Of a DNA stretch of 64,000 bases, positions 1 to 25,901 are shown piece after piece. The translations under genes and the position numbers were made by a program. A model generated the notes under the pieces. That model saw nothing but the letters and a program-made list of their open reading frames with translations. It made no database searches and was not told the DNA's origin. This DNA is from Escherichia coli (GTDB lineage: Bacteria; Pseudomonadota; Gammaproteobacteria; Enterobacterales; Enterobacteriaceae): NCBI RefSeq assembly GCF_003991155.1, contig NZ_CP031293.1. The stretch is one strand, 5' to 3'. Position 1 is the first letter of the stretch, and every line of letters begins with the position of its first letter.

Positions 1-153
1 CAGTAAATCGATAAACACATCTTCACTATCCAGCAGGAACGGGTTCATGCCGGCTTTAATAATTGCTTCTTCACGATAAGCGCGAGTGGTACGTTTTACT
101 GGCTCAATAACACGAATGCGGAACGGTTCAGGGAGATGTTTAAAGTTTTCCAT
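1..153 (-). CDS. tnaA: tryptophanase, N-terminal 51 codons only (gene runs off the window start)
   Basis: Minus-strand translation from ATG at 151-153 gives [51 protein letters not shown], the TnaA N-terminus with one substitution versus the K-12 protein as recalled; an in-frame ATG also lies 15 nt upstream. Confidence 0.85.
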
Positions 154-359
154 TACGTAATCCTTCATTTATTTTAAGGACAGAAAATTACGGAGATATT
201 GCAAATGCAATACCCGATAGTTCGCTAAAATATTTGCAAGAGACATCATTTATAAAAATGAATGATAGTCTTTACAAAAGCAGAAATAAGATATGCCAAA
301 CAGACAGGTTAGATGGAATTCAATCTATTTGACAAAAATGATGGTTACAGAAAGGCAAG

Positions 360-434
360 TTAAGGGTGGTGTTCAACAATCTTGTTGTCGATATTGAACC
401 ATTTTGAGGTCACACATATATGTAAGATATTCAT
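360..434 (-). CDS. tnaC: tna operon leader peptide (24 aa, MNILHICVTSKWFNIDNKIVEHHP)
   Basis: Own translation of minus strand; W12, D16 and terminal P24 are conserved; positions 21 and 23 differ from K-12 TnaC as recalled (DHRP); ~206 nt spacer to tnaA start. Confidence 0.8.
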   Translation of the reverse strand: MNILHICVTSKWFNIDNKIVEHHP

Positions 435-509
435 AATGCACTTATCCTCGAAAGACACGAGGTTACAGTATAATACTCAAGAAATTTGTCTATCCTGAAA
501 TTGTTTAAA

Positions 510-525
510 TGTGAATCGAATCACA
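510..525 (-). promoter_or_regulatory. CRP site TGTGAATCGAATCACA upstream of tnaC, with candidate -10 (TATACT/TATTAT) near 463-478
   Basis: Perfect TGTGA-N6-TCACA palindrome about 75-90 nt upstream of the tnaC ATG; the tna operon is known to be CRP-dependent. Confidence 0.6.
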
Positions 526-1488
526 GTTGGTTATTAGTGATATAAAATGACAATGATTTTGCATCATTAAAAATATTTATCAATTACGTTGATAAAACTA
601 TTACATGCAGGTGTTAATAAATGGTGATAAAAATGGTAAATGACAGAGATGTAATGTTGAAGATGATTCCTTGATGAGAATTATGTTCTACGGAAGTGGT
701 ACATCAACTTTTTGGGAAGGTATATAAATAAAGCAGAATAGATCACGTTTGGCACACATCTGATTACTCATGTAATTAACTAATTTCAGCACGGTTTTTC
801 TTGCTTTTTTAGAGTAATTAATATACCGATGCCCAAGATGAATATCATAAGAAATACTATCAAAATAATGTCTGGAATGAAATATTATACAGATGAATGA
901 TTGCGGTTACCTGATGATTTAAATAATGAATATGTGATTTGCTTGTTATATAAGAAAATTTAAATATTGCCGATAGTGTATTGAATAGTGCCTGCTTAAC
1001 GGGGTCCCCTGTTAAGTTGTCAAGCATGTTTATGAGACTGCTGGGGGATAAAAAGTCCCGGCACACATCCTGCTAACAGGACATCACTGCACTGTCTGAG
1101 CGATAAACGCTTGGTTGTGTCGTATTCCACGGCTCATTTTACGTGTGTAGTACGTTTGGGTATTGGTTTTCGGAGAGCAGCAAAGGCTGACAGGAACAAT
1201 GCCCGTTTGATGAGTTTATTGTCTCGTCTTGGCGGATGTTCGCCACATATTGATGAACCGTAACGCTAGGTAAAAAGGGGAAGCAAGACCCCACTGTTTC
1301 ACTTCAAAAGCCTTGCTTATGTAGAGTGATGAGATGGAGTGCCAGAAGGCCTGGAGTGGCAGAATAACGACTGCGGCATGCGTACCGGGAGCGATCATGG
1401 TTTGTTGTACCAGTGCCTGAGTGATGTCTGCCGCGGGGCGTTTTTCAAGATGAGGCTCAAGCTTGCAGGGCTGCCAGCTTCTTTTCAC

Positions 1489-2883
1489 TTAGCGAAGCCA
1501 GTTTTTCCGGCCTACGGCTACTCCCCGTAAGGCGTTCTCTGCGATGTTGTTGTCGATTTCCACCCAGCCATTGCTGCAGTACACGTTCAGGCCATCCCAC
1601 TGTTTCAGCAGGTATGCGAACGCTTTTGCCGTATCTGAGTGACGCGACAGTGTTTTCATCTGTTGCTGTATCCAGTCATACAGTGACTGCATCAGTGGCG
1701 CGGCTCTGGCTTTTCTTGCCGCCAGACGCTGTTCTGCTGAACAGCCCCGGACCTCTGCCTCGATGGCATACAGTTCACCGATACGCTGCAGGGCTTCCGT
1801 GGTGATGTAGGTGGGCGCTCTTGCATGCACATCGTGGATTTTTCTCCGGGCATGAGCCATACACGCGGCTTCCGTTATTCTGCCGGATTCGTATAACGCC
1901 CGGTAACCACCGTAAGCATCGGCCTGAAGCACACCGCTGTAACCGGCCAGGTGATTTTGTGGATGGATACCTTTCCGGTCCGGACTGTACGCGAACCAGA
2001 CCGCCGGGGGCATCTGTGAACCGGCGTTACGGTCATCACGGACGTAGACCCACAGCCGGGCTGTCCGGGTTTTACCGCTGCCCGGCTCCTGGACCGGGAC
2101 GGGGATATCATCAGCATGGACTTTACCGGGCATCAGCACATACTGGCGCAGGACGTCATACAGCGGCTCCAGCAGTTCAGCAACAGCACCTGTCCAGCGC
2201 CCCAGTGTGGCACGGCTCAGCTCCACTCCCTGACGACGGTATATTTCTGACTGGCGGTATAACGGCAGATGGTCTGCATATTTCCCGGTGACAACATGGG
2301 CCAGAAGCCCCGCTCCGGCATAACTGCGTGCAATGGGTTTTGAAGGTACTGGTGCCTGCACGATATGGTCGCACCGGCAACAGGCCTGTTTCGGACGTTG
2401 TGTTTCGATAACCTTAAAGGCGCTGCTGATAAGCTCCAGTTGCTCTGACACATCACATCCCAGAGAACTGAGTTCACCACCACAGGCAGGACAGCATTCC
2501 TCTTCCGGCCGGATAACCCGGGTTTCACGGGGAAGTGAGGCCGGTAACGGTTTACGGGCTGAAGACTGGCGCAGGGCGGATGGCAGTACCGGGTCATATT
2601 GCTCACCCAGCGTTTCCGCCATTTCTTCCTGAAGTGCGCTGATTCGCTCCTGTGCTTCCTGTATCTGCCGTTCGGTTTTTGCACGAAGTTTTTCTGAGCT
2701 TTTACCGAACTGCATACGTTGCAGTTTCGCAACCAGCGCCTTCAGCCGGTTGATTTCGGAAGCATAAGCCGCCACCCGCTGTGAGAGCAGGCGGTTGTAT
2801 TCAGCCATCTGGCGGATGGTGTCCTGTTGCGTCTGCAACAGTGCCCGCAGGCGGGCGTTCTCATGAGCAAGTGAGGTGTCCAT
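1489..2883 (-). CDS. IS66-family transposase TnpC (orfC), C-terminus apparently disrupted
   Basis: 464-aa ORF with zinc-finger-like CxxC pairs and DDE-region conservation; ends at KNWLR where family members continue; a 90-aa ORF (1216..1488) lies immediately downstream in the same orientation. Confidence 0.75.
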
Positions 2884-2902
2884 ATCCTCACTTTACAACG
2901 GG

Positions 2903-3250
2903 TTATATGCGGATTCCAGCGCGTTCCGTTCGTTTCGGGTGCTTCCAGTTGATACCTTCAAGAAGCATGGATAACTGAGCCGGAGTAAGGTGCACCTTGC
3001 CGTCACGGGTGACTGGCCAGACGAAGCGGCCCCGCTCCAGGCGTTTGGTGAAGAGGCACAGTCCGTCACTGTCAGCCCACAACACTTTTATCTGGTCACC
3101 CCGGCGTCCGCGGAAGATGAACAGGTGTCCGGAGAACGGGTCATCCTTCAGGACGTTCTGAACTTTTGATGCCAGGCCGTTAAAGCCATTTCGCATATCG
3201 GTGATACCTGCAACCAGCCAGATACGCGAACCTGCAGGGAGAGATATCAT
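2903..3250 (-). CDS. IS66-family TnpB (orfB)
   Basis: 115-aa ORF MISLPAGSRIWLVAGITDMRNGFNGLA..., the characteristic IS66 Orf2 N-terminus. Confidence 0.8.
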   Translation of the reverse strand: MISLPAGSRIWLVAGITDMRNGFNGLASKVQNVLKDDPFSGHLFIFRGRRGDQIKVLWADSDGLCLFTKRLERGRFVWPVTRDGKVHLTPAQLSMLLEGINWKHPKRTERAGIRI

Positions 3251-3927
3251 CAGTGGCTGCTCCCTTTTATTTCGCGGATAAGTGTCTGTAATAACGCCGG
3301 CGTCAGTTTACCTTTAAGCCTGAGAGTTCCGGCCGGCAGAACCAGCTCACAACACAGACTGTCGGACGGTGTATTTATCTGCTCTGGTTCCTGTGCGGGG
3401 GCCGGGATTTTATTATCCGGCTCCGGCGTTAACGTCACGGGAAGCAGTGCCGGCATATTTTTTCCGGAAGGCAGCAGGCCACCTTTCCGGTATTGATGGC
3501 GCCAGTTGAAGAGCAGGTTATCGTTGATTCCGTTTTCCCGGGCGATCTGCGCCACACAGGCTCCGGGCTGCAGTGACTGCTCCACTAAGGCGATTTTAAA
3601 CTCATAAGGGAAGTTGGGCCGCCGGGGACGTTTTTTTACCACGGGGGCTTCGGATATAACGGTGCTTTCAGGACGTACGACTGGTACCGTGGAAAATTGT
3701 CCGTAAAGGCAGGCATCAAGTTCCTGCTCCGACATGCCTGCGGGCAAAGGCCACGAAAGGCCAGCTCTCCGAAAGCGCACGAACATACTACAAACTGTTG
3801 ATTTTGGTACACCCAGGCGACGCCCGGCCACAACCCGGGGTAAATGTTCTTCAAAGTGAAGACGTAAAGCTTCAGTGATCCAGGTCCGGTGTTTCATACG
3901 ATAGTGTCCATTAAAAATGATGGACAT
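3250..3927 (-). CDS. chimeric ORF: IS21-family IstA-like N-terminus (HTH + LSWPLPAGMSEQELDACLY) fused to IS66-family TnpA (orfA)
   Basis: C-terminal ~130 aa (PNFPYEFKIALVEQSLQPGACVAQIARENGINDNLLFNWR) is IS66 TnpA-like; N-terminal ~95 aa resembles IS21 IstA N-termini. Confidence 0.55.
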   Translation of the reverse strand: MSIIFNGHYRMKHRTWITEALRLHFEEHLPRVVAGRRLGVPKSTVCSMFVRFRRAGLSWPLPAGMSEQELDACLYGQFSTVPVVRPESTVISEAPVVKKRPRRPNFPYEFKIALVEQSLQPGACVAQIARENGINDNLLFNWRHQYRKGGLLPSGKNMPALLPVTLTPEPDNKIPAPAQEPEQINTPSDSLCCELVLPAGTLRLKGKLTPALLQTLIREIKGSSH

Positions 3928-3976
3928 TATTTTTGTAGAGCCGGAGGAAACAGACCAGACGGTTTAAATGAGCCGG

Positions 3977-4180
3977 TTACTTTCCCTCGCGCCATTGTTG
4001 TCGCCATTTGAACAACAGATTGGCGTTAATGCCATTTTCAAGAGCAAGTTTTGAGATGGATATCCCGGGTTCACAGGAGGCAGCAACGAGCTGCTGTTTA
4101 AATTCGGGAGGATAATTAGGGCAGCCTTTTCGCCTGCCGGGAGTCACATTTTTCTGCATATCTGACACTTTGGTTCCCAC
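3977..4180 (-). pseudogene. second IS66-family tnpA-like fragment (67 aa)
   Basis: PNYPPEFKQQLVAASCEPGISISKLALENGINANLLFKWRQQW is paralogous to the TnpA segment at 3250..3650; far shorter than intact TnpA. Confidence 0.5.
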
Positions 4181-4836
4181 TACTTATTTGGTGGACACCA
4201 CTTTGTCTAATTCGTCAGATTCTGACCAGACGGTTCAGGCTGTACGCTTACGTAGAACGCAGGTTCGTTTCGGTTCAGGATCGCGACAGTGCCCCCTCAC
4301 CTTCAGCTACAGTTCCCATAGAATTTTTTTCAGGTCAGTAATACTGGCTGCTGTTGTTGTCAGGATTTGATAGCTCATAAGCCCCGTTTGTCTTATTGGT
4401 ATAAGAGCATCTTTAAAAGCACTCTTAAAAGTACTCGTGTTGAAAAAACAGCCAGAACAAATGAAGTATGGCTCTTTCCGACAACTCTCTAAAACGTTCT
4501 GTAACACATTCTGAGCGTTTTTACGTCAGTTAGGCACGCCGCTCAGTGCTTCTGAGCGGCCTTGTTGCCGCGATCTGTTGTCCTGATCTTGATAAATGAA
4601 CATCAATACGGCGTTCCGTCAGTGTTTACAATAACTCCCAATTCATAACTACTTTTAACACATTTGTGTGATTCCCCCTTTCTGCTGAAAATATAGTTAT
4701 TTCCAATATAATCAATGAGTTTTATTAATTTGTTGATTTTTTTTTTCATGTTTTTTTTGTGATAATTATCATTTGAATGTGAATGTTGCTCCTGAATAAT
4801 GTTTATCAAAGTTGTCTGGTACGAGGGAGAAATTTC

Positions 4837-6099
4837 ATGGCTATCATCATGGGGATCATCGCTGACGATTTTACTGGCGCGACTGATATTGCCTGCTTTA
4901 TGGCAGAGAATGGTTTTCGGGTTGCGCTGTTGCCCGGTTTGCATGCACTCACGCAGTCATGGGATGAAGAGGCTGATGCAATAGTCATTTCACTGAAAAG
5001 TCGTTCATTACCCGCGAATCAGGCAATTGAGCAGACTTTGCTAAGTTATCATTGGTTGCGTGACTGTGCGGGGGCGCAGCAGATCTATTTCAAATATTGC
5101 TCAACATTTGATTCCACTGCAGATGGCAATATCGGCCCGGTCAGCGATGCACTGATGAAGGTGATGGGCACACCTTATGTCGTGCATTGTCCCGCTTTGC
5201 CCCAAAATGGCCGAACAGTTATCCATGGACATCTTTTTGTTAACGGTATACCCCTTAACGAATCCGGCATGGAAAAACACCCCCTGAATCCAATGACCGA
5301 CACTAACCTGCTGCGCGTACTGGCTGCACAAACCCCCAATAGAGTTGGTAATCTTGATCTGAGGACAGTTCAACAGGGCGAGCAAGCCATCACCACCGCA
5401 CTTTCCCGTTGTCAGGCTGAAGGGAAGCAACACATTATTGTCGATACATTAACTGAAAATGATCTGCAAAGCCTGGCAAATGTATTACGCCATACACCTT
5501 TACTGGCTGGGGGATCCGGACTGGGTGGGGCGTTAGCCGCTTTTTTACAGCAACATCCTTATACGCCAGCCTCCGCGTTTCCCAATCCTGCCAGAACGGT
5601 AATCTTCTCCGGAAGTTGTTCAGTGATGAGTAATCGACAGGTGGATGCTTATAAATCGCATGCAGCCACGCAGTTGCTTGATGTTGCTCGTTGTCTGGAC
5701 GATGGCAATAGATATATCGATCAATTACTTGAATGGACAATTGCGCACATCAATGATCCGCTTGCTCCGTTGATTTACGCCACTCAACCTGCGGATGTGT
5801 TGAAATCTATACAGCAAACCTGGGGTGAACACGCGGCAAGTAAAGCCATTGAACAAACTTTTGCGCAGCTTAGCCAAAAATTGCAGGTCGCGGGTGTCAA
5901 CACTTTTATTGTTGCTGGGGGAGAAACTTCCGGGACTGTAGTGGAAGCGCTAAATGTGAAACGGCTAACAGTGGGGAGCACTATTACGCCGGGCGTACCA
6001 TGGGTTTTTTCGGCAGAACCGCCCCTGGCACTGGCGCTGAAATCTGGCAATTTTGGGGAGCCTGATTTTTTCATTAAGGCTCAGGAGCATGGATTATGA
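4837..6099 (+). CDS. four-carbon acid-sugar kinase family protein (DUF1537; OtnK/YgbK-like 3-oxo-tetronate kinase homolog)
   Basis: N-terminal IADDFTGATD motif and overall length (420 aa) typical of DUF1537 kinases; RBS GAGGGAG upstream; stop overlaps next start. Confidence 0.75.
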   Translation: MAIIMGIIADDFTGATDIACFMAENGFRVALLPGLHALTQSWDEEADAIVISLKSRSLPANQAIEQTLLSYHWLRDCAGAQQIYFKYCSTFDSTADGNIGPVSDALMKVMGTPYVVHCPALPQNGRTVIHGHLFVNGIPLNESGMEKHPLNPMTDTNLLRVLAAQTPNRVGNLDLRTVQQGEQAITTALSRCQAEGKQHIIVDTLTENDLQSLANVLRHTPLLAGGSGLGGALAAFLQQHPYTPASAFPNPARTVIFSGSCSVMSNRQVDAYKSHAATQLLDVARCLDDGNRYIDQLLEWTIAHINDPLAPLIYATQPADVLKSIQQTWGEHAASKAIEQTFAQLSQKLQVAGVNTFIVAGGETSGTVVEALNVKRLTVGSTITPGVPWVFSAEPPLALALKSGNFGEPDFFIKAQEHGL

Positions 6100-6734
6100 G
6101 TGAACTCATCGAACAAAAATTACGTGAACAACTCGTCTATTACGGGCGTTCGCTCTTTATGCGCGGTTTCAGTAGTGGCGGTTCCGGCAATATCAGCGTC
6201 AAACTGGCTGAAGACCGTTTTTTGGTCACGCCGACCAATTCCTGTCTTGGCGAGTTAGATAGTGAAAGAGTGAGTCTTATCGATATTCATGGCAACCATA
6301 TCAGTGGTGATAAGCCGTCAAAAGAGGTGCCTATGCATCTTGCCTGGTATCGACATCGTCCGAACTGTGGAGCGGTGGTACATCTGCACTCGCCATGGCT
6401 GACGGCACTTTCGTGTTTACCTTGCACAACACCAGAGAATTGCTTACCGCCGCTCACTCCCTATTACGTGATGCGTGTGGGGAAATTACCATTATTGCCT
6501 TATTTCAAACCAGGACATGAGGATATCGCTACGGCATTAAGCCATATAGCGGCCGACTCTACCGCAGCTCTGTTGGCGAATCATGGCCCCGTTGTCAGCG
6601 GAAGAACATTGCGCGAAGCGGTATTTAATGCCGAAGAGCTGGAAGACAGTGCCCGTATCTGGCTGACCTTAAAACCACTTGGCTATGTTCCTCTTTCGGC
6701 AAAAGACATCGCTGAACTGGAACAGGCCAGATGA
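6096..6734 (+). CDS. class II aldolase/adducin-family protein (OtnC/YgbL-like decarboxylase/aldolase)
   Basis: 212 aa, SGGSGNISVK and HLHSPW metal-binding-type motifs; ATGA overlap with upstream kinase gene. Confidence 0.75.
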   Translation: MSELIEQKLREQLVYYGRSLFMRGFSSGGSGNISVKLAEDRFLVTPTNSCLGELDSERVSLIDIHGNHISGDKPSKEVPMHLAWYRHRPNCGAVVHLHSPWLTALSCLPCTTPENCLPPLTPYYVMRVGKLPLLPYFKPGHEDIATALSHIAADSTAALLANHGPVVSGRTLREAVFNAEELEDSARIWLTLKPLGYVPLSAKDIAELEQAR

Positions 6735-6749
6735 TAACGAGGTGAGAGG

Positions 6750-7556
6750 ATGATACCCGAGCAAAGGCGAGACTTTATTTACCGCTATGTCCATGAGAAA
6801 AACGTTGCTTCATTTAATGAACTGGCTGAGTTGATGAGCGTTTCGCATATGACAGTGCGTCGTGATATTCAATTACTGGAAGAAGAAGGCAAAGTTATTA
6901 CCATAAATGGCGGCGTTAAGCTGAACAACCAACTTAAATTGGAGTTACCGTGGCGAGAAAAAGCTGAACTGCATCATGATATTAAGCGTGACATGGGGCA
7001 GCTTGCTGCGATGTTGATCGAACCCGGGCAGACACTCTATTTAGATGCCGGAACCTCATTATTTGAGGTCGCAAAAGCAATCGTTGCCAGCCAGTGCTTT
7101 AATCTCACTATCGTGACAAATGATTTCTCTATCAGCCATTACCTGATGGATATGCAACATATCACGCTTTACCACACCGGGGGATTGGTAGATCAACGCA
7201 ATCGTTCTTGTTTGGGGAAAAGTGCAGCTGATTTTCTGCGCACGATTAATATCGATGTTGCATTTCTTAGCTCCTCTTCATGGGATACACAAAGAGGAAT
7301 GTCAACACCAAATGAAGGTAAAGCTACAGTGAAAGAGGCGGCGCTTACGGTCTCCCGTCGCCGCGTATTAGTGTGTGATAGCAGTAAATTCGGTAAATAC
7401 GGAATGTTCCATATATGCGAGCTCAGCCAATTGACCGATATCATTTCAGATAACCAGTTGCCTTTATCGGCGCAGGAAAGCATTACACAGCTGGGCGTGA
7501 AATTACATCTGGTTAATAGCCGGGAGGGAACGCAGCATGTTGAAGCTGGCGGCTAA
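6750..7556 (+). CDS. DeoR-family transcriptional regulator
   Basis: N-terminal HTH (FNELAELMSVSHMTVRRDIQLLEEEGKV) and C-terminal sugar-phosphate-binding-like domain. Confidence 0.8.
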   Translation: MIPEQRRDFIYRYVHEKNVASFNELAELMSVSHMTVRRDIQLLEEEGKVITINGGVKLNNQLKLELPWREKAELHHDIKRDMGQLAAMLIEPGQTLYLDAGTSLFEVAKAIVASQCFNLTIVTNDFSISHYLMDMQHITLYHTGGLVDQRNRSCLGKSAADFLRTINIDVAFLSSSSWDTQRGMSTPNEGKATVKEAALTVSRRRVLVCDSSKFGKYGMFHICELSQLTDIISDNQLPLSAQESITQLGVKLHLVNSREGTQHVEAGG

Positions 7557-8313
7557 TCTCGACTGGTTGTTCACAGAACTGCCGATGTCTGCACGGTTTC
7601 ATGCAGCCAGACGGGAGGGGTTTCGTGCTGTTGAAGGAATGTTTTTCTGTCAGCATTCTCTGGATATGCTGAGAATTGCGCAGCAAGAATCGGGAATGAG
7701 CGTGGTGCTGATGAATGCTCCGGCAGGTGACTGGCTACGAGGTGAGCGTGGCCTGGCTGCACTTCCTGGCCGCGATGATGAATACCTGAACAGTTTGCTC
7801 ATTGCCCGCCGATATGCAGGGACGCTGGGATGCAGGCAGGTTCATGTTATGGCGGGCCTTCGGGATCACTCTGTGACAGAAGATGAACAACTGGAGTTAC
7901 TGGTTAATCGCTTGTGCATAGCCTGCGATGTGCTGGCGGAAAAAGATATTACAGTATTAATCGAACCCCTGAATTCTGAAGATATGCCTGGCTATATTAT
8001 TAATAGCCTTCCTCGAGCAAAAGATATTATCCGGCGGGTTTCTCACCAAAATATTGGTTTGCAGTTTGATATTTATCATTGCCAGAAAATTCATGGTAAT
8101 GTCACCCAAAATATAGATAAATATTTATCAATAGTTAAGCATTTTCAGATTGCCTCTGTGCCTGGTCGCCACGAACCAGGTTCTGGTGAGCTAAATGATA
8201 CGTGGATATTAAATTTTATTAATCAAAAAAACTTCCAGGGCTGGATTGGCTGTGAGTATAAACCTTCCACACTGACAACCGAGTCATTACGCTGGATGAA
8301 ACCATATTTATAA
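7537..8313 (+). CDS. Hyi/OtnI-like TIM-barrel isomerase (hydroxypyruvate / 2-oxo-tetronate isomerase family)
   Basis: 258 aa; strong similarity to E. coli Hyi as recalled (AGDW..GERG, LIEPLN, GW(I/V)GCEYKP, LRWM.PY). Confidence 0.8.
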   Translation: MLKLAANLDWLFTELPMSARFHAARREGFRAVEGMFFCQHSLDMLRIAQQESGMSVVLMNAPAGDWLRGERGLAALPGRDDEYLNSLLIARRYAGTLGCRQVHVMAGLRDHSVTEDEQLELLVNRLCIACDVLAEKDITVLIEPLNSEDMPGYIINSLPRAKDIIRRVSHQNIGLQFDIYHCQKIHGNVTQNIDKYLSIVKHFQIASVPGRHEPGSGELNDTWILNFINQKNFQGWIGCEYKPSTLTTESLRWMKPYL

Positions 8314-8334
8314 AATCTTTTTCTGGAGGAAAAT

Positions 8335-9147: not shown

Positions 9148-9168
9148 CGACAGACAGGACATTTTACT

Positions 9169-10479: not shown

Positions 10480-10514
10480 TCTGCCTGTTGTAACCTTTCA
10501 AAAGGAAACTCAAT

Positions 10515-10934
10515 ATGACGACATTGACCCTGAAACAAGCATTGCTTGCAGTAGAGTATGCGCTTGATCTTGCAGTGCAACAATATGCTGGCCGTCCTTT
10601 AAGTGTGGCAGTATGCGATGTTAATGGTGAATTGCTGAGCTTTGCCCGCATGGATAGAGCCAAACTGTTAACTATTGAATTAACGCAGCGTAAAGCACGA
10701 ACCAGTAGTCGTCTGGGCTGTACGACAGCAGCATTCTTACAGCGTCTACAAAAAGAGCAACTTGATATCAGCTATTTTGGAGATCCCCGGTTTACCGCAT
10801 TACCAGGAGGGATCCCTATTCTGGTTAAAGGAAAATGCATTGGTGCTGTTGCTGTGGGGGGATTATCCGCACGAGAAGATCATGATGCGGCACAGGCTGT
10901 CGCAGATAAACTGCTTGAGGAGATGACCAAATGA
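10515..10934 (+). CDS. GlcG/DUF336 (HbpS-like) protein
   Basis: 139 aa, typical DUF336 length and GAVAVGG glycine-rich motif. Confidence 0.6.
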   Translation: MTTLTLKQALLAVEYALDLAVQQYAGRPLSVAVCDVNGELLSFARMDRAKLLTIELTQRKARTSSRLGCTTAAFLQRLQKEQLDISYFGDPRFTALPGGIPILVKGKCIGAVAVGGLSAREDHDAAQAVADKLLEEMTK

Positions 10935-11581
10935 AAAAAATAGCCATGCTTCACACCAGTTCAGCCACGCTTGCGGTGATGCAACAACTGATAGGCGATA
11001 TCATGCCTGAGGCTGAAGTGATGCATCTGGTTGAGGAGTCTATGATTAAGCAGGTGATGAAAGCGGGCGGTGTTACGCCAGATATCGCCGCACGGATCGC
11101 TGATTACATACGGATCGCTGAAAAAGCCGACTGCGATATTTTCATTACCGCTTGTTCATCAATTGGTACTGCTGTCGAACAGTGTCAATTTATGACTTCA
11201 GTACAACTGGCACGGATTGACTGTGCGATGGTGGATGAAGCAATCAACAAAGGGGAACACATTGCTGTGCTGGCAACGGTGGCCACAACGCTGAAACCGA
11301 CGCTTGATTTTGTCCGGCGAAAAGTTCAGGAAAGTGGAAAACAGCGGATTATTACACCTGTTTTAATGGAAGAAGCCTTCCATGCGTTATTGAATGGTGA
11401 TATGGGAACGCATGACCGCATTGTGAGTGAAGGATTACAAAAGGCCTTTGGGCAGGCAGATGTTATTATGTTAGCGCAGGCATCGATGGCACGGGTGCTG
11501 CAAAATATGCCTGAGCCTCCGGTTCCGGTATTAACATCGCCAGAAAGCGGTATTCGCTGGTTGAAAACATTCGCGAGTTAA
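10931..11581 (+). CDS. AroM-like / Asp-Glu-hydantoin racemase superfamily protein
   Basis: 216 aa; architecture resembles E. coli AroM as recalled; ATGA overlap with upstream gene; family assignment tentative. Confidence 0.45.
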   Translation: MKKIAMLHTSSATLAVMQQLIGDIMPEAEVMHLVEESMIKQVMKAGGVTPDIAARIADYIRIAEKADCDIFITACSSIGTAVEQCQFMTSVQLARIDCAMVDEAINKGEHIAVLATVATTLKPTLDFVRRKVQESGKQRIITPVLMEEAFHALLNGDMGTHDRIVSEGLQKAFGQADVIMLAQASMARVLQNMPEPPVPVLTSPESGIRWLKTFAS

Positions 11582-11684
11582 GTCAGGTATAGTTTCTATA
11601 TTAAAGACGTTTACACATAATGGTGTACAGGCCCATTCAGAAACGGAACTGGGAATTTATTAACGGATAATCCGGAAACGTATT

Positions 11685-11716
11685 AAATGGCAGAAGGTAA
11701 CTACTTTCTGCCATTT
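11685..11716 (+). terminator. perfect 11-bp inverted repeat (AAATGGCAGAA / TTCTGCCATTT, 10-nt loop) ~105 nt downstream of the operon
   Basis: Seen directly; no clear T-tract follows, so terminator function is uncertain. Confidence 0.35.
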
Positions 11717-12101
11717 CACAGACAGGATGTACATATTAATCGGCCATGATGGTTGACATAAAAAATGCATCGGCAGTGATGTGGCAAGTTTTTCCCGGAC
11801 AATGTTTTTCTTCATCCCACTTGCAGAAAATATATAATATTATATTTTATATAACATTTTCTAACTCATTGAATACACTTGCAAATCTTCTCATTCTTAC
11901 TTAGAAATATTATTAATTTTAACGTTCTTTGTTGAATGTTTGTTTGGTTACAGCCATCTAATTTTTTAAATGCACAGTATCTGTGGATAACTTTGCGTAA
12001 ACACTGGGGACAGAGCTCGTTGAACCAGAGAAAGCACGCATGAAAACAAAATACTCATTCTTTAACCATTCTGTATAAGATCAGATGTCAGATCTGCTCA
12101 A

Positions 12102-12157
12102 TTCCGCTTTCCCGGTCACTGACTCGCTACGCTCGATCGTTCGGTTGCGGCGAGCGG
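12102..12157. other. ~56-bp segment resembling ColE1/pMB1-type plasmid backbone sequence
   Basis: TTCCGCTTTCCCGGTCACTGACTCGCTACGCTCGATCGTTCGGTTGCGGCGAGCGG versus pBR322/pUC backbone as recalled; roughly 50 of 56 positions match. Confidence 0.4.
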
Positions 12158-12455
12158 AGTCTCCTTTCTCAAAATCAGGCTTCGTGCATCTGGTCACAAA
12201 CCCGTATATCAATCATCATTGATGAGAAATTATCTTTATGAGGGCGTTTTTTTGGTTTCAGTTTTGCACGGAACCAGGAGATTTTTGGGAGTTGTTTTAT
12301 GTATGTTGTAAATAAAATTTTAATATTGACATCTACTGTACGTGCATAGAGTACGCCGGTGACCAACGTCAGCATTCCACTGTTCCAGTAACTAATTAAC
12401 GTAAGTGAAGTTATCGAGGAAGCAATACTGGATGGAGAAGTCGTCCTTGAGGTAT

Positions 12456-12737
12456 TCACTTTCCTTTCGTTCTGCCCATTAGTGGACAGCTAACTAGTGG
12501 CAGGACATCGGAGTACAGCACCTTCCCGTTGTTATTTATCAGCACGGCAGCTTTCTGGTTATTGACGAGCACAGTTTTCACGCCGCCGCCAAAGTTGTGG
12601 AAGACTCGCACCAGTGACTCATGGGTATGTTCAGCATCCTGTATGGGGCAGCAAAGAGATAGAAGCGACGTGAGAACCCCCTGCGTATTAGTCGCGAAGT
12701 TAATGCAGCATCGTTGTCTGACCAGTACCCCAGTCAT
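12456..12737 (-). pseudogene. IS21-family transposase IstA fragment (central DDE region, truncated)
   Basis: Translation ...QDAEHTHESLVRVFHNFGGGVKTVLVNNQKAAVLINNNGKV...GRTKGK closely parallels IS21 IstA and stops inside the TKGK(V)E motif; flanking frames 12738..13143 look like further degenerate remains. Confidence 0.6.
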
Positions 12738-13219
12738 GCTGGAGCTGGTAATCCGGCTGAGTTTTGAAGCGAACCGTTTTCTTCGATTTCCGTCTGGGAA
12801 GTAATCAGACTCAGCACGGACAAAAATTGCAGCGCCCGGATGGCACGGGTAATGGTCAGATTACCGGATGCGGATTAGGTGCCGCGTAGTGAAGCGCGCC
12901 GGATTCAGAGTCGCTAGTATGGTCATACAGCGAAGGAAAGCCGCCAATTTTTGTGCCGGACGTGGAATATACAGCGAATGCTGATGTAAAAGGCGCTCGT
13001 AATATTTTAGCTGCGGGACATACTGTGCTTGCCAGGGAAGGGATGGTGCAGTCAGACCACCCGTTGAAGCGAAATGAACCTGAACCATACGACAACCTGA
13101 AAGTAGCAGGAATCCACGCCCTGAAGGACGTGGAGGAAGTCAAATCGATGGTAGGTTGTAGGTTTATGGCAACATCTGCTTCATTAGATACATGTCGATA
13201 TACAGAACATATATCACAT

Positions 13220-13903
13220 TTATGAATTTTCTTTTATCCTGCTATTTTGGGGTTTATTGTGAAAGTAACTTTCAAGAACAGGCAGATAGTACCAGGATTC
13301 AGGATGTTTTTTCAGGAATTCATTTAAAAATGATTGCATTGTTAAATATAAATCTTTGTTATTTCCTTTATGTATAAAATCATAAATCCACACGTAATTA
13401 CTGTAATTAGAATCAAAGTATGATGCAATAAAATACGCATTAGCACCTGCGCGTCTTACAATATATTCCCAACCACCGTGCAACCATGCTTTCTTATTCA
13501 GTAGACAAGCTTCTCTTACAGAACCATAGTTTTCGCTACTATACACTGAGGGTATATCTGGTAATATAATCAAATTAGCTCCGTTTTTTACAAGCTTAAT
13601 CATGGCCTTTATTTCTGTAATGCCATTTTTTTCGAAAACAGTAATCTGATGCCCAAGTCCAGAAAGTGAATGTATTAATTCCAACTCATTGAGACCATTT
13701 ACAGAACTTCTATAAAAAATAAAATGTGAGTTAGATTTATATGAAAGTAGAATTTTATGAATGGCTGTCCAGTATTCACCAGAATGTAAAACTACAAACA
13801 CAGAATTATTAAGTGTTTTATGTAATGCATCCAAAAAACAGTCTTCATATATAAATTTTGTACGGTGTGCATACTCATGAAGGGTATTCATAGACACAAT
13901 CAT
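13220..13903 (-). CDS. hypothetical AT-rich protein with LpxL/LpxM-like (lipid A late acyltransferase family) features, lacking the usual N-terminal region
   Basis: 227 aa; H-S-G-E-Y-W and ILPDIP motifs resemble HxGxWE and LPDQD motifs of LpxL-family enzymes; markedly AT-rich. Confidence 0.35.
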   Translation of the reverse strand: MIVSMNTLHEYAHRTKFIYEDCFLDALHKTLNNSVFVVLHSGEYWTAIHKILLSYKSNSHFIFYRSSVNGLNELELIHSLSGLGHQITVFEKNGITEIKAMIKLVKNGANLIILPDIPSVYSSENYGSVREACLLNKKAWLHGGWEYIVRRAGANAYFIASYFDSNYSNYVWIYDFIHKGNNKDLYLTMQSFLNEFLKKHPESWYYLPVLESYFHNKPQNSRIKENS

Positions 13904-13983
13904 TTTAGCCCTATTACTGACAATAATGATAATTGATATTCTGAGCGTATCGAAAATAAGTCCGAATTATCAGAAGGTTTATT

Positions 13984-14756
13984 ATGAAAATACTCATTGC
14001 AGGGGCAACCGGAAGTATTGGTCTTCATGTCGTGAATACCGCTATTGAAATGGGTCATCAGCCCGTGGCGCTGGTCAGAAATAAACGCAAAGTAAAATCT
14101 CTTCCTCGTGGAACAGATGTTTTTTACGGCGATGTTTCAATGCCGGAAACACTCACCGAATTGCCGAAAGATATTGATGCCATCATCTTCACTCTCGGTT
14201 CTGATGGCCAGGGGCGTATTGGTGCCAGAGCGATCGATTACGGAGGAGTGCGTAATATTTTGCGAATATTCAGGGATACACCTGTTCGTATCAGCTAATG
14301 ACCACGATTGGCGTGACTGAGCGGCTCAGCACTTGGAATCAACGCACTGAGGTTCATGACAGGAAAAGACGTGCCGAGCGTCTGGTCAGGGCCAGCGGTC
14401 ATCCCTATATTATCGTCCGGCCCGGCTGGTTTGATTACAACAATGATGATGAACACAGGATCGTTATGCTTCAGGGGGATCGTCGCCATGCAGGAACACC
14501 GGAAGATGGTGTGATATCCCGGGAGCAAATCGCCCAGGTTCTGGTCAGTGCCCTGACCAACGACGAGGCAAAAAATAAAACGTTCGAGCTGGTGGCTGAA
14601 CGAGGTGAAGCACCACAGGATCTTACCCCACTGTTTGCAGAACTGCAGACTGATGATGCACAAAAAAATGATGGGGTTCTGGACATAGACAATATGCAGC
14701 TGAGAGAAGAACCGGAGTGCATTATTAACGAGCTGAACCTGTATTCAAAAAATTAA
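13984..14756 (+). pseudogene. NAD(P)H-binding NmrA/atypical-SDR-family oxidoreductase split by a frameshift at ~14296
   Basis: First ORF (104 aa) starts with Rossmann motif MKILIAGATGSIG; second ORF (152 aa) continues the family in another frame; junction AGCTAATGACC. Confidence 0.6.
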
Positions 14757-14897
14757 ACAATCTACAACCCTGACAATTTTGTCATATAGCGGTCAGCCTC
14801 ATGACAGTTTAAGTCTGTATATTTACATACACAAACGGGGATAGTTCCCTTGATACGAATCCAGTTTTAAACATAGATTTTAAAAGAGGTATTAAAT

Positions 14898-15149
14898 ATG
14901 AAAGCATTACTTATTACTACATTGGTCATGGGGTTTATTTCAGTGAATGCCGCATCTGCAGCTCAGGAAATTAACCATGCAGATGGGAAAGAAAAGATAG
15001 GTGTAGTCTCAGCCAGCAATGCCTATACGCTTGATGAATTATCGAATACGCTTTCTCGTAAGGCTGATGAACAAGGAGCAACATCGTTCAAAATTCTGTC
15101 AACCACGGGGAATAACCGGCTGCACGGGGTTGCTGAAATCTATAAGTAA
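14898..15149 (+). CDS. BhsA/YdgH/McbA-family (DUF1471) small secreted stress protein
   Basis: 83 aa with signal peptide and C-terminal ...LHGVAEIYK closely paralleling E. coli BhsA. Confidence 0.75.
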   Translation: MKALLITTLVMGFISVNAASAAQEINHADGKEKIGVVSASNAYTLDELSNTLSRKADEQGATSFKILSTTGNNRLHGVAEIYK

Positions 15150-15205
15150 ATCATTAGTATCCTGAGCAGGATGTGTCTTAACCCTCTTATAGCGAGCGTC
15201 GATTT

Positions 15206-15541
15206 ATGTTTAGAACAGAAGACATCATCGATGAGATAACCCAATGGATTGATTCAAATTTACATAAGCCGCTGAAGATAGAGGATGTTGCTGCGCGGGC
15301 AGGATACTCGAGGTGGCATCTTCAGCGGATTTTTGTGCAGGTGAGAGAAATTAGCCTTGGGAAGTACATAAGAGATACGAAACTTAGACTTGCAGCAAAA
15401 GATCTTATCGCGACTAATGAGCCAGTGATGGTTATCGCCTTTAAATATGGATTCGATTCACAACAAACTTTTACTCGGATTTTCTTTAAAAAATATAAAT
15501 TGCCACCATTGAAATATAGGGTAATGACTCCAACTTATTGA
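15206..15541 (+). CDS. MarA/SoxS/Rob-type small AraC-family regulator, 3' end replaced by IS1 sequence
   Basis: Two HTH regions (SRWHLQRIF... / ...QQTFTRIF) like SoxS; IS1 left end begins at 15520 inside the ORF so the last ~7 codons and the stop are IS1-derived. Confidence 0.7.
15511..15519. repeat. IS1 target-site duplication, left copy (GAAATATAG)
   Basis: Identical 9-mer directly flanks both IS1 ends. Confidence 0.8.
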
Positions 15542-16038
15542 TAGTGTTTTATGTTCAGATAATGCCCGATGACTTTGTCATGCAGCTCCACCGATTTTGA
15601 AAACGACAGCGACTTCCGTCCCAGCCGTGCCAGGTGCTGCCTCAGATTCAGGTTATGCCGCTCAATTCGCTGCGTATATCGCTTGCTGATTACGTGCAGC
15701 TTTCCCTTCAGGCGGGATTCATACAGCGGCCAGCCATCCGTCATCCATATCACCACGTCAAAGGGTGACAGCAGGCTCATAAGACGCCCCAGCGTCGCCA
15801 TAGTGCGTTCACCGAATACGTGCGCAACAACCGTCTTCCGGAGCCTGTCATACGCGTAAAACAGCCAGCGCTGGCGCGATTTAGCCCCGACGTATCCCCA
15901 CTGTTCGTCCATTTCCGCGCAGACGATGACGTCACTGCCCGGCTGTATGCGCGAGGTTACCGACTGCGGCCTGAGTTTTTTAAATGGCGGAAAATCGTGT
16001 TGAGGCCAACGCCCATAATGCGGGCGGTTGCCCGGCAT
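15535..16038 (-). CDS. insB: IS1 InsB (expressed as InsAB' by frameshift)
   Basis: 167-aa ORF matching IS1 InsB. Confidence 0.85.
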
Positions 16039-16232
16039 CCAACGCCATTCATGGCCATATCAATGATTTTCTGGTGCGTACCGGGTTGAGAAGCGGTGTA
16101 AGTGAACTGCAGTTGCCATGTTTTACGGCAATGAGAGCAGAGATAGCGCTGATGTCCGGCGGTGCTTTTGCCGTTACGCACCACTCCGTCAGTAGCTGAA
16201 CAGGAGGGACAGCTGATAGAAACAGAAGCCAC
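15957..16232 (-). CDS. insA: IS1 InsA
   Basis: [42 protein letters not shown]... Confidence 0.9.
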
Positions 16233-16287
16233 TGGAGCACCTCAAAAACACCATCATACACTAAATCAGTAAGTTGGCAGCATCACC

Positions 16288-16296
16288 GAAATATAG
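16288..16296. repeat. IS1 target-site duplication, right copy (GAAATATAG)
   Basis: Identical 9-mer directly flanks both IS1 ends. Confidence 0.8.
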
Positions 16297-16522
16297 AAAC
16301 GCGGAAAGGAGAAAAAAACTTCACCAGCCCATGTCTTAAGTTCTGTCAGTATGGCTACAGCCTGTTTGCTGAGTGGCACAAGGTGTGGTGTTCGAATCTT
16401 GGTTCCCCAATGAGAGTTCAGGCGGTGTGGGCAAATAAAAAAGAAAACATAAATAAAACCATCCGACCGTTGGTGGGGCTGGATGGTTATTCATTATTTC
16501 TATGTCACTGAACTTTCATTCA

Positions 16523-17704
16523 TCAGATCTGCTCAGAAAGTGAATCAATGTAGTCAGCATACCACTGCATCATTTCACGGCGACCATCCAGATACTGGGC
16601 ATGATTATAGGTACCTCTGATAGCGTTTTTATCCATATGAGCTAACTGCATTTCAATCCAGGCAGAATTAAAGCCCTGTTCGTGCAGAATTGTACTCATG
16701 GTGTGTCTGAAACCGTGCCCTGTGAGTCTTCCCTTATATCCTAGTAATTCAATGACTTGGTTTATGCTTTCCTTACTAATTGGTTTGCGAGGATCGTTCC
16801 TACCGATAAAGACCAGAGGATGATGTTTTGAGATTGGTTCAAGTTGCTTAAATAGCGCAATGACCTGCTCAGAGAGCGGCACAATATGAGGTCGCTTCAT
16901 CTTCATTACTTCTGCCGGGATCTCCCATAATTTTGTCTCAAAATCGATATCCTCCCAGCGTGCGAAACGCAATTCTTGAGTTCGTACACCAGTTAGCATA
17001 ATGATTTGAGTGGCTGTCTTAGTGATAATACTTCCGGTATAACCCGCCAGATCATTGAGGAAGTGGGGAAGTTCATTAGCAGTAAGAAAGGGAAAATGTA
17101 CTTTTTTCGGTGTAGCTAAAGCACTGGCAAGATCGGGAGCAGGGTTGTAGTTAGCCCGACCAGTAACAATTGCATAGCGGAACACCTCTCCACAGCGCTG
17201 GCGGACCTTACGCATTTTCTCCAGAGCTCCACGTTTTTCCATTTTACGCAATGCTTCCAGTAACTCCATTGGTTTGATTTCAGCAATAGGGCGTTTGCCA
17301 ATATAGGGAAAAATATCTTTTTCAAAGGTATCAATGATTTCATCACGATAGCGTAATGACCACCGATCGGCTTTTGACTGATGCCATTCTCGAGCAACGG
17401 CCTCAAATGTGTTTTTCAAACTCATTTGCAGCGCGATTTTTTCTTCTTTTTTTGTCTCACCCGGATCGCATCCTGCAGCGAGGATTTTCCTAGCTTCACT
17501 GCGTTTTTCGCGAGCGTCGGCTAGAGTTACATCGGGGTATACGCCAATAGAAAGCATCTTTTCTTTGCCAGCAAAGCGGTACTTCATACGCCAATATTTA
17601 GAACCATTAGTGTTAATGAGTAGATACATACCGCCACCATCAGACAGCTTATAGGGCTTTTCTTTTGGTTTTGCGGTTTTCACTTTAATATCAGTTAACG
17701 CCAT
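16523..17704 (-). CDS. P4-type (CP4-like) tyrosine integrase
   Basis: 393 aa, C-terminal HGFRHT...Y catalytic signature; lies beside the 3' end of selC in the same orientation. Confidence 0.85.
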   Translation of the reverse strand: MALTDIKVKTAKPKEKPYKLSDGGGMYLLINTNGSKYWRMKYRFAGKEKMLSIGVYPDVTLADAREKRSEARKILAAGCDPGETKKEEKIALQMSLKNTFEAVAREWHQSKADRWSLRYRDEIIDTFEKDIFPYIGKRPIAEIKPMELLEALRKMEKRGALEKMRKVRQRCGEVFRYAIVTGRANYNPAPDLASALATPKKVHFPFLTANELPHFLNDLAGYTGSIITKTATQIIMLTGVRTQELRFARWEDIDFETKLWEIPAEVMKMKRPHIVPLSEQVIALFKQLEPISKHHPLVFIGRNDPRKPISKESINQVIELLGYKGRLTGHGFRHTMSTILHEQGFNSAWIEMQLAHMDKNAIRGTYNHAQYLDGRREMMQWYADYIDSLSEQI

Positions 17705-17999
17705 GACATCCTCCGGATTTTGATGAATCCATGTTCCTGGACTTCTGCCAGTAACTGACCTGATATCCCCAATGCACCCCCATGTATAACAAAGATGTTG
17801 TTAAAAGCCGTTGTTATATATCACATTTTTTCCATTATGGGGGTGCTGATATTTTAAGAGAAAATAGTACCCCCTAAAGTACCCCCAAAAGCAACTTGAT
17901 ATGGGGTGATACCGGTTGACCTCGGGATACAAAGAAATCCTGATATACAATAGGTTATATGGAGATTGTTGATATAAGGAGAGTTCAGAAGAGGTTAAT

Positions 18000-18094
18000 T
18001 GGCGGAAGATCACAGGAGTCGAACCTGCCCGGGACCGCTGGCGGCCCCAACTGGATTTGAAGTCCAGCCGCCTCACCGGAGACGACGATCTTCC
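18000..18094 (-). tRNA. selC: tRNA-Sec (selenocysteine)
   Basis: Reverse complement reads GGAAGATCGTCGTCTCCGGTGAGGCGGCTGGACTTCAAATCCAGTTGGGGCCGCCAGCGGTCCCGGGCAGGTTCGACTCCTGTGATCTTCCGCCA (95 nt, CCA end), matching E. coli selC as recalled. Confidence 0.9.
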
Positions 18095-22111: not shown

Positions 22112-22142
22112 CCGGATACGAATGGTTTTGTGTCGTATCCGG
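22112..22142. repeat. perfect 10-bp inverted repeat (CCGGATACGA / TCGTATCCGG) downstream of yicI
   Basis: Seen directly; REP-like or terminator hairpin without T-tract. Confidence 0.4.
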
Positions 22143-22391
22143 TAAATAATCTCACATCTGGTAATAAATATTTCTTCCATCGTATTTGCGAGCATGATCA
22201 CGATTATTCATCACGAAAATGTGATCTGTGCTGAAAAATATCCCTTAACCGCCTTGCTTTGTTTTATCACTGTCCGGATTACGGACATATTTTAGTATTG
22301 TTGTGAAATTATTCTGCTTTATATTTACCCTCAGAGATGGCAACTGAAGCTCTTCCTCATAGGGCTTCTTAATCTGTGATAAGGGTAAAAA

Positions 22392-23945: not shown

Positions 23946-23971
23946 TGTCAGAATTTTATGAGGTATGACGA

Positions 23972-24442: not shown

Positions 24443-24459
24443 ATAACAGGGAGTATGTC

Positions 24460-24774
24460 ATGAATATTGTCTGTGTTGCCGCCTGTACGGCGGGTATTGC
24501 TCATACCTATATTGCTCGTGAAAAGTTAATCAAAGGAGCAAAAGCTCTGGGCCATACCATTAAAGTTGAAACCCAGGGAACCATTGGTACAGAAAATGAA
24601 TTACAGGCGGCAGATATCTCTGCTGCTGACGTCGTGATTCTTGCTGTAGATGTGAAAATAAAAGGAGAAGAACGCTTCACCAATAAACGTATTGTGCGAG
24701 TAAAGACAGAGATCGTCATTAAATCGCCCGTTCAATTTCTTGAAAAGGTCGAAAAATCACTGGGAAACAAATGA
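24460..24774 (+). CDS. PTS EIIB component (fructose-like)
   Basis: 104 aa, N-terminal VAACTAGIAHTY cysteine phosphorylation motif. Confidence 0.8.
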   Translation: MNIVCVAACTAGIAHTYIAREKLIKGAKALGHTIKVETQGTIGTENELQAADISAADVVILAVDVKIKGEERFTNKRIVRVKTEIVIKSPVQFLEKVEKSLGNK

Positions 24775-24798
24775 TCCTTATACTGGAGGGATCTTAAT

Positions 24799-25890: not shown

Positions 25891-25901
25891 CCGGAGGCCC
25901 T

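Follow-up and report, generated by a model that had tools for sequence, protein, structure and literature searches.

Extent and boundaries of the selC island

The stretch of Escherichia coli DNA analysed here, which we call the window, is 64 kb long, and its first 18,094 positions very probably (we put this at about 0.88) represent the integrase-proximal ~40% of a horizontally acquired island of ~45 kb that sits in selC, the gene for tRNA-Sec, in a strain of the sequence type 457 (ST457) type. The locus displays the classical features of a tRNA-associated island, i.e., an intact tRNA, direct repeats, an integrase, a precise empty site, and deviant GC and insertion sequence (IS) content. The end of the island that adjoins selC is laid out as follows, with positions given in the window.

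18000..18094, minus strand: selC (tRNA-Sec, anticodon UCA), intact, the integration target (ARAGORN; Rfam RF01852)
18000..18023: 24-bp attachment core TGGCGGAAGATCACAGGAGTCGAA, identical to the selC 3′ end; integrase-proximal copy of the direct repeat
16523..17704, minus strand: P4-family tyrosine integrase, intact, 393 aa, 295 bp from the selC 3′ end
17776..17893: four ACCCCC/GGGGGT motifs, putative arm-type integrase-binding repeats

The selC gene is the sole tRNA that ARAGORN reports in the window, matches Rfam RF01852 over its full length with 83.8 bits (gathering score 47), and is identical to selC of K-12. In K-12 MG1655, selC is followed by the yicT pseudogene (a rhuM fragment) and setC, with no insertion, and no stretch of window positions 1..17999 aligns to the K-12 selC locus; in the window, foreign DNA begins right at the 3′ end of the gene. 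A preliminary description of this DNA, made from the sequence alone, had stated that everything to the left of selC is absent from this position in K-12 and had placed the far boundary of the island outside the window; the comparison with K-12 confirms the former, and genomes closely related to the window strain bear out the latter.

Although a second selC-derived repeat was sought within the window and none was found, one is present in the relatives, as the preliminary description had proposed to check. In strain 2016C-3878, which is 100% identical over the window part of the island, the foreign DNA runs ~27 kb further to the left, to a perfect second copy of the 24-bp core located 44,349 bp away, and K-12-type sequence resumes directly after this copy, before setC. 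The island is thus 44,349 bp long (one repeat counted) in relatives that lack the IS1 copy described below. That IS1 is the only difference from 2016C-3878 within 1..18094, and the window is otherwise 100% identical to this strain out to ~43.9 kb; if the rest of the island is also the same, the island of the window strain would measure ~45.1 kb. The empty sites of K-12 and of strain E50 contain one core copy each, and that of K-12 reads as the far flank, a single core, and selC. A tandem array of islands was ruled out because only two core copies exist and no degenerate internal copy (up to 5 substitutions) occurs in the full 44,349-bp island.

Base composition sets the island apart as well. 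The GC content is 45.9% for the part in the window (43.8% with IS elements removed) and 46.8% for the whole island, while the rest of the window has 49.0% and an ST457 genome has ~50.5% (PMC9860340). When the island was searched against plasmids, the only matches were to IS elements, and its cargo was found on no plasmid.

Integrase and attachment sites

The integrase contains the Pfam domains Arm-DNA-bind_3 (PF13356), Phage_int_M (PF22022), and Phage_integrase (PF00589), and it scores 318 bits against NCBIfam PRK09692, under the cutoff of 434. Alignment with the integrase of phage P4 (P4 Int) covers the full length (43% identity, E 1e-113) and keeps the R...HxxR...Y motifs in register, the segments VRTQELR, HGFRH, and GTYNH falling on the catalytic motifs of P4 Int. 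The domain content and this end-to-end alignment support the label of a P4-type integrase, so the arrangement given in the preliminary description, tRNA-Sec at 18000..18094 with such an integrase beside its 3′ end, holds by ARAGORN, Rfam, Pfam, and the P4 Int alignment alike. The phage search retrieved no closer relative than integrases of the IntS/Sf6/HK620 type, at 48–50% identity. Related integrases (at least ~87% DNA identity) adjoin selC in 1,510 of 5,426 complete E. coli genomes, O157:H7 included.

Two of the ACCCCC/GGGGGT motifs next to the integrase form a tandem pair in a 12-bp register (GTACCCCCTAAA GTACCCCCAAAA, 17866..17889), and a matching tandem pair lies 55 bp inside the far end of the island. 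The hexamer occurs 10 times in the 64-kb window, with 4 of the occurrences inside the 120 bp next to the integrase gene. Tandem 12-bp arm repeats of the TTGGGGGCA type are likewise annotated on both sides of the core in the attachment site (attP) of phage P4, and by this likeness the repeats on the two arms of the island are putative integrase-binding sites. The far-end sequence TATGAGAGTTAATG is the partner of window positions ~17900..18023 in the predicted attP junction of a circular form.

Two further observations concern the DNA around the core. Towards the island, the integrase-proximal core is bordered by ~20 bp (GAGAGTTCAGAAGAGGTTAAT, within 17960..17999) that resemble the sequence following selC in K-12 and E50 (GAGAACGTCAGAAGAGGCATTT). 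Separately, an older selC island may have left the yicT/rhuM remnant next to setC as its integrase-proximal scar.

The most probable course of events is that attP of the island recombined with the last 24 bp of selC through the island’s own P4-family integrase, the chemistry being that expected of the family. Such recombination would regenerate an intact tRNA gene and leave the 24-bp core at both ends of the island, which is the state of the two junctions. The backbone is CP4-like, with the integrase at one end, a candidate AlpA-family excisionase, and a distal module at the far end. By annotation, the distal part in the relatives contains YfjJ/Gp2-type genes, a GTPase, an antirestriction gene, RadC, a YeeU/CbtA toxin-antitoxin pair, and DUF4942, along with the AlpA-family excisionase candidate, an “inovirus Gp2 family” gene, and psuK/psuG/nupC. 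Onto this backbone the cargo has been loaded by IS-mediated, possibly plasmid-mediated, events, since debris of IS66, IS110, IS3-like, and IS21 elements, of an IncFII RepA gene, and of TnpB flanks each cargo block.

Presence and absence among related genomes

A megablast search with window positions 1..18094 against the 5,426 complete E. coli genomes retrieved 21 (0.4%) in which the entire stretch is present and 100% identical, barring one 777-bp gap, and it is these 21 that have the full island. The yicJ-yicI flank is 100% identical to that of the window in 46 complete genomes, 21 of them with the island and 25 without, and in several of the island-free sister genomes the coordinates are offset by exactly 44,349 bp. 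In the clonal sister E50 the site is empty, with one core, and no mismatch occurs over 6,000 bp of the left flank and 4,126 bp of the right flank. The gene content of the island would have been expected at this position in island-free strains had it been native there; the site is precisely empty in both K-12 and E50. ST457 belongs to phylogroup F, and the published members of this clone include island-positive (MRY15-117 and MRY15-131) and island-negative (CREC-544) strains (PMC5430464; PMC9860340).

The same integrase and attachment site end was found in three chromosomal backgrounds. In two draft assemblies, L007 and L010, the stretch from the integrase through the attachment site to selC is 100% identical to the window, the 37 differences all falling from 119 bp beyond selC onward. 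Over 1,900 bp of right flank, L007 has 15 differences from K-12 and 36 from the window, and L010 has 4 and 37. These K-12-like carriers (GCA_964048855.1 and GCA_974490525.1) were compared at the right-hand junction only. The copies in other backgrounds are structural variants, with an IS1 in the deoR gene, with a different IS66 and a sulfatase gene, or with a truncated operon, and a search for far-end junctions with the distal DUF4942 protein as probe retrieved only the ST457-type context. The identical integrase end in three backgrounds, together with the island-free sisters within the clone, argues for recent movement.

Alternative explanations

Several points weigh against this reading. The far 27 kb and the second repeat lie outside the window, and their presence in the window strain is predicted from relatives that match it at 100% over the 17.3 kb they have in common. 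The activity of the integrase and of the AlpA-type protein, and with it excision, is predicted from sequence, as are all functions given here, and the annotation of the 44 kb has no genes for conjugation, mobilisation, or packaging. A single clone may account for all 21 complete genomes, in which case their count says little about spread, and the evidence from other backgrounds comes from the two draft assemblies, at one junction each. As for the proposed metabolic role of the cargo, a dehydrogenase of the LtnD/DenD type is absent both from the eight-gene operon of the island and from its syntenic counterparts in other genera.

We consider it unlikely that the island is instead an immobile remnant, with selC-spanning segments having been passed between strains by RecA-dependent homologous recombination after transduction or conjugation and its own integrase uninvolved. 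The annotation without transfer or packaging genes agrees with such a remnant, heavy IS decay suggests an ageing element, the conserved selC gene and its neighbours could be crossover substrates, and the other backgrounds were compared at the right-hand junction. Nevertheless, the flanks of E50 are free of differences for more than 10 kb where other lineages differ by ~2%, so replacement would need a donor from the same clone. In L007 and L010, the polymorphism of the background begins within 119 bp of selC, which leaves ~200 bp for a crossover, and this would have had to happen twice. In addition, the island retains an intact integrase, two perfect cores, and putative arm-type repeats on each arm.

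Very improbable, to our minds, is a P4-like phage satellite or cryptic prophage. The resemblance of the integrase to P4 Int, the P4-like architecture of the attachment site, the AlpA-type excisionase candidate, the distal “inovirus Gp2 family” gene, and the IntS/Sf6/HK620-type phage matches all point in this direction, but the 44 kb has no annotated P4 alpha, sid/psu/delta, capsid, tail, or lysis genes, most of its length is metabolic cargo and IS debris, and its hypothetical proteins have no structural PHROG match. That the DNA is ancestral to E. coli and was deleted from K-12 and most other strains is effectively refuted: chromosomal homologues do exist elsewhere of tnaCAB, of the catabolic operon (between glnH and dps in one Escherichia), and of the trio of SDR gene, DUF1471 gene, and regulator described below, yet the segment has an integrase and a duplicated tRNA 3′ end at its borders, occurs in 0.4% of complete genomes, leaves exact single-core empty sites, has low GC, has IS debris at every module junction, and carries a tna allele from outside E. 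coli diversity.

A second tryptophanase operon

The preliminary description had missed the fact that the window starts inside a second, island-borne tnaCAB operon.

1..525, minus strand: start of the second tnaCAB operon (annotation of identical sequence)
1..153, minus strand: 5′ end of tnaA (first 153 nt)
360..434, minus strand: tnaC leader peptide
526..1083: AT-rich spacer, unannotated

Strain 2016C-3878 retains its native tnaCAB operon between mnmE and mdtL. The island and native operons share 94.9% DNA identity over 3.2 kb, and their TnaA proteins match at 470 of 471 residues; the homology stops at window position 525, which is 91 bp upstream of tnaC. Across 5,424 genomes, sequences at least 99% identical to the island allele occur only in the 21 island carriers, the next best match reaching 95.2%, which places the origin of the allele outside the sampled diversity of E. 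coli. A search for the source of the allele retrieved exact TnaB matches in island contexts only.

An eight-gene catabolic operon

The metabolic operon reported in the preliminary description proved to consist of eight genes, all on the plus strand.

4837..11581, plus strand: eight-gene catabolic operon
4837..6099, plus strand: OtnK (NCBIfam 510 bits, cutoff 350; Pfam SBD_N/NBD_C)
6096..6734, plus strand: OtnC (NCBIfam 289 bits, cutoff 250; Pfam Aldolase_II)
6750..7556, plus strand: YgbI-like DeoR repressor (261 bits, below the cutoff of 400)
7537..8313, plus strand: OtnI-like isomerase (OtnI 282 bits, below the cutoff of 325)
8335..9147, plus strand: BKACE/DUF849 enzyme (best model KCE, 243 bits, below the cutoff of 382)
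9169..10479, plus strand: BASS-family transporter
10515..10934, plus strand: GlcG/HbpS-like protein
10931..11581, plus strand: Asp/Glu-racemase-family protein (Pfam)

OtnK and OtnC pass the NCBIfam equivalog cutoffs, and the OtnI-like protein scores 275 bits against hydroxypyruvate isomerase, nearly equal to its score against OtnI. In a synteny scan of one genome per bacterial species, the same eight genes were found in the same order in at least eight genera (Citrobacter, Klebsiella, Raoultella, Trabulsiella, Atlantibacter, Enterobacter, Yersinia, and Edaphovirga), and this conserved synteny indicates that the operon is a coherent catabolic unit that was captured by the island. The BKACE protein of Citrobacter is 84–87% identical to that of the island. 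In Citrobacter and Klebsiella, the flanks of the block are highly conserved and resemble core genes, and beyond these two genera no conserved extra flanking gene was found. Among complete E. coli genomes the operon is confined to the 21 island carriers. A 91%-identical copy lies between glnH and dps in Escherichia SCPM-O-B-8794 and sets the limits of the module at 4753..11565.

The function of the operon can be approached through a four-step pathway in which LtnD, OtnI, OtnK, and OtnC take L-threonate to dihydroxyacetone phosphate (DHAP) (bioRxiv 10.1101/2025.05.18.654769; see also PMC12994016). The C4 acid-sugar pathway of E. coli encoded by ygbI-ygbJKLMN (ltnD-otnK-otnC-otnI) shares OtnK, OtnC, an OtnI-like protein, and a YgbI-like repressor with the island operon. 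In contrast, the island operon lacks the LtnD/DenD-type dehydrogenase and the GntP-type transporter and has the BKACE, BASS, GlcG-like, and racemase-family proteins instead. By family, the OtnI-like protein, OtnK, and OtnC should funnel a 2-/3-oxo acid sugar to DHAP and CO2, and the BKACE, GlcG-like, and racemase-like proteins and the BASS transporter would be feeder steps to which no substrate is assigned. The relatives of the BKACE protein in the PDB are Kce, uncharacterised DUF849 structures, and, more distantly, cis-epoxysuccinate hydrolase, from which no substrate can be assigned, and a PDB search with the racemase-like protein returned no solved relative. In the literature we found no description of an operon that combines Otn and BKACE genes.

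In Atlantibacter hermannii and A. subterranea (L025 and L027, ~5106), a homologue (57% identity) of the RamA-like regulator of the island, described in the next section, lies directly upstream of the eight-gene operon; this adjacency may be coincidence or a regulatory link.

One could go further and propose that an active element is spreading a non-E. coli tryptophanase operon and a new route from acid sugars or beta-keto acids to DHAP across phylogroups, ST457 included, with a niche-specific gain in fitness. We regard this as a tentative and rather doubtful extension. If it were true, the extra tna operon would raise or re-regulate indole production. ST457 is an emerging extraintestinal pathogen lineage (PMC9860340), and here the integrase and attachment site platform at selC brings purely metabolic and regulatory cargo into it. 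The second tna operon and the Otn/BKACE operon are testable candidates for new physiology, and the clean polymorphism within a clone, together with the K-12-like carriers, offers a natural system in which excision and transfer of a P4-type island could be measured. None of this overturns current understanding.

Regulatory and stress-family cargo

Between the operon and the integrase, the island carries a further group of genes.

13220..13903, minus strand: AT-rich hypothetical, 227 aa, GC 34%, with weak similarity to the lipid A acyltransferase family
13984..14756, plus strand: NmrA/SDR-like oxidoreductase pseudogene, frameshift at ~14298 (two abutting open reading frames; Pfam NAD_binding_10/NmrA)
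14898..15149, plus strand: small periplasmic stress-family protein, DUF1471 (YdgH/BhsA/McbA family)
15206..15541, plus strand: small AraC activator of the MarA/SoxS/RamA family, cut by IS1 after ~codon 104

The activator is 118 aa long in IS1-free relatives (intact allele, L001 30206..30562). Among NCBIfam models it fits RamA best, with 151.9 bits, which is below the equivalog cutoff of 180, and its closest relatives are unnamed AraC-type proteins of Klebsiella, Enterobacter, Raoultella, and Citrobacter at 83–86% identity, proteins annotated as RamA family being ~57–63% identical. RamA itself is an activator of antibiotic efflux.

The preliminary description had also announced stress- or envelope-related genes. 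The stress part stands: the DUF1471 protein belongs to the Pfam family YdgH_BhsA-like and scores 80.9 bits against NCBIfam BhsA, below the cutoff of 90. For the envelope part, the only candidate is the 227-aa hypothetical, with a weak match to Pfam Lip_A_acyltrans (E 7e-4) and one to NCBIfam PRK08419 (E 2.8e-6); it has no PHROG or PADLOC match. PADLOC and PHROG searches with the hypothetical proteins retrieved neither a defence system nor a phage structural function. The oxidoreductase pseudogene is labelled “SDR family oxidoreductase, frameshifted” in RefSeq, and a few E. coli have the trio of SDR gene, DUF1471 gene, and regulator elsewhere in the chromosome, at ~90–92% identity.

Insertion sequences and debris

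The IS content of the island part in the window is as follows.

1084..1510, minus strand: IS110-family transposase fragment, abutting the truncated ISCro1 (RefSeq annotation of identical sequence)
1489..3927 (element ~1495..3930), minus strand: ISCro1 (IS66 family), 3′-truncated (NCBIfam transpos_IS66, 421 bits)
1489..2883, minus strand: ISCro1 tnpC, 464 aa, C-terminus missing (RefSeq “incomplete”)
2903..3250, minus strand: ISCro1 tnpB
3250..3927, minus strand: ISCro1 tnpA
3977..4159, minus strand: 60-aa transposase N-terminal fragment, IS3-like (PHROG transposase E 7e-28; Pfam HTH_Tnp_1)
12175..13084: debris block (RefSeq annotation of identical sequence in strains WW2 and 2016C-3878)
12175..12375, minus strand: 66-aa hypothetical
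~12354..12798, minus strand: IS21 istA fragment (blastn 73% identity to ISEc62 istA over 12354..12787)
12782..12874, minus strand: IncFII RepA fragment
12921..13084, plus strand: InsQ/TnpB fragment
15520..16287, minus strand: complete IS1 (768 bp) between the two copies of a 9-bp target duplication, GAAATATAG, at 15511..15519 and 16288..16296

All three of the IS families named in the preliminary description (IS1, IS21, and IS66) are present, but IS1 is not a remnant: it is a complete copy of 768 bp with its target duplication and is a recent insertion. The same insertion is found in assembly GCA_028736835.1 (L009). The ISCro1 remnant is 99% identical to plasmid and chromosomal copies of ISCro1 from position 1498 onward, and IS-related sequence reaches to ~4265, with window positions 4200..4265 matching many chromosomes and plasmids. 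A 90-aa open reading frame within the IS110 fragment has no NCBIfam match.

Other copies of the island contain additional insertions: a second IS1 in the DUF1471 region of L009 (16696..17393), an IS1 in the deoR gene of the L010 copy (7705..8473), and an IS5-like ISKpn26 in the operon region of strain CDE6306 (NZ_CP191552.1, 100200..108900). The island is therefore an active IS target in which IS1 and IS5 hits are still accumulating. Transposons bounded by IS1 and carrying blaOXA-244 have been reported to land in selC islands (PMC12611639), and an IS1 is already present in this one.

Comparison with known elements

The selC gene ranks among the classic hot spots for uptake of large foreign DNA blocks in E. 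coli. It is a documented site of the enterocyte effacement locus (LEE), SHI-2, PAI I-536, the tia pathogenicity island (PAI), variants of LAA, and GIselC17584/1 (PMC7545054; PMC6174562). As in the island described here, LEE/SpLE4 of O157:H7, SHI-2 of Shigella flexneri, PAI I-536, the tia PAI of enterotoxigenic E. coli, and GIselC17584/1 of Shiga toxin-producing E. coli O91:H21 are joined to the selC 3′ end and encode a P4-like integrase, the O157:H7 copy of which is 89.5% identical in DNA to that of the island. The known selC islands also have direct repeats of the tRNA end and measure tens of kb, and the 24-bp selC repeat itself recurs in GIselC17584/1 (PMC6174562). SHI-2 shows IS-rich stepwise assembly (PMC7545054), as does this island.

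Unlike these islands, the one described here has no type III secretion system, toxin, adhesin, siderophore, or protease genes, and carries instead the second tnaCAB operon, the Otn/BKACE operon, psuK/psuG/nupC, and the RamA-like regulator. Neither the annotation of the 44 kb nor the family searches in the window contain a virulence determinant (toxin, adhesin, secretion system, siderophore, or invasin), and a pathogenicity island by content was rejected on this ground. Resistance, transfer, and phage structural genes are likewise not annotated in the island. An integrative and conjugative or mobilisable element was rejected as well, since the annotation of the 44 kb, where an origin of transfer was not searched for, has no relaxase, coupling protein, or type IV secretion genes. 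What is new is the combination of cargo, the class of selC islands itself being well known, and we found no description of this island or of its cargo combination in the literature.

A role in carbohydrate uptake and metabolism has reportedly been assigned to another selC island, AGI-3 of the avian pathogenic E. coli strain BEN2908 (Chouikha et al. 2006), to which we claim no relatedness. Located at tRNA or tmRNA genes, the elements CP4-6, CP4-44, and CP4-57 of K-12 encode a P4-like integrase and also have AlpA-type and YfjJ-type genes. These CP4-type elements share with the island a distal module of GTPase, antirestriction, RadC, YeeU/CbtA, and DUF4942 genes, whereas the island lies at selC, and its central cargo is different and much larger.

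The integration module of phage P4 has the same domain architecture in its integrase, integration at a tRNA 3′ end, and tandem 12-bp G5-containing arm repeats flanking the core, which the putative arm repeats of the island resemble. Its core and target differ, the target of P4 being a leucine tRNA gene, and the other genes of P4 are absent from the annotation of the island: no primase/helicase (alpha), sid/psu/delta, or cos is annotated over its full length.

Neighbouring loci

Several other loci near the island differ from K-12 or within the clone. A 7.3-kb cluster at window positions 22121..29377, between yicI and yicH, is absent from K-12 MG1655 and has no integrase or IS annotated beside it. 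It encodes a BglG-family antiterminator, fructose-type IIA, IIB, and IIC components of a phosphotransferase system, two class II aldolases, a ROK-family protein, and a D-lyxose/D-mannose isomerase.

Strain 2016C-3878 has two further insertions. One, between yicS and nepI (L002 17959..34959), is separate from the selC island, lies beyond setC/yicL/nlpA, and is absent from K-12 at that position. It encodes a type III secretion chaperone, SipB/SipD-like translocators, the HilA-family regulator EilA, and the 9.9-kb inverse autotransporter gene iatC. These eip/eilA/iatC genes, beyond nlpA and yicS, are outside the selC island as bounded by its attachment sites. The other is a ~17-kb element between yicC and dinD (L037 3088..19728) that is missing at window positions ~43873..43881 and is a second presence/absence polymorphism in the same clone. 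It encodes a tyrosine integrase, a DUF5906 protein, an “ash family” protein, a “phage DNA ejection protein,” and a PerC-family regulator.

Finally, the stretch of 31–43% GC at window positions ~53000..62500 is, by annotation of an identical relative, an ordinary waa cluster for biosynthesis of the lipopolysaccharide (LPS) core, in the order rfaQ, waaG, rfaP, waaO, rfaY, UDP-galactose:(galactosyl) LPS alpha1,2-galactosyltransferase, O-antigen ligase, rfaC, and rfaF.

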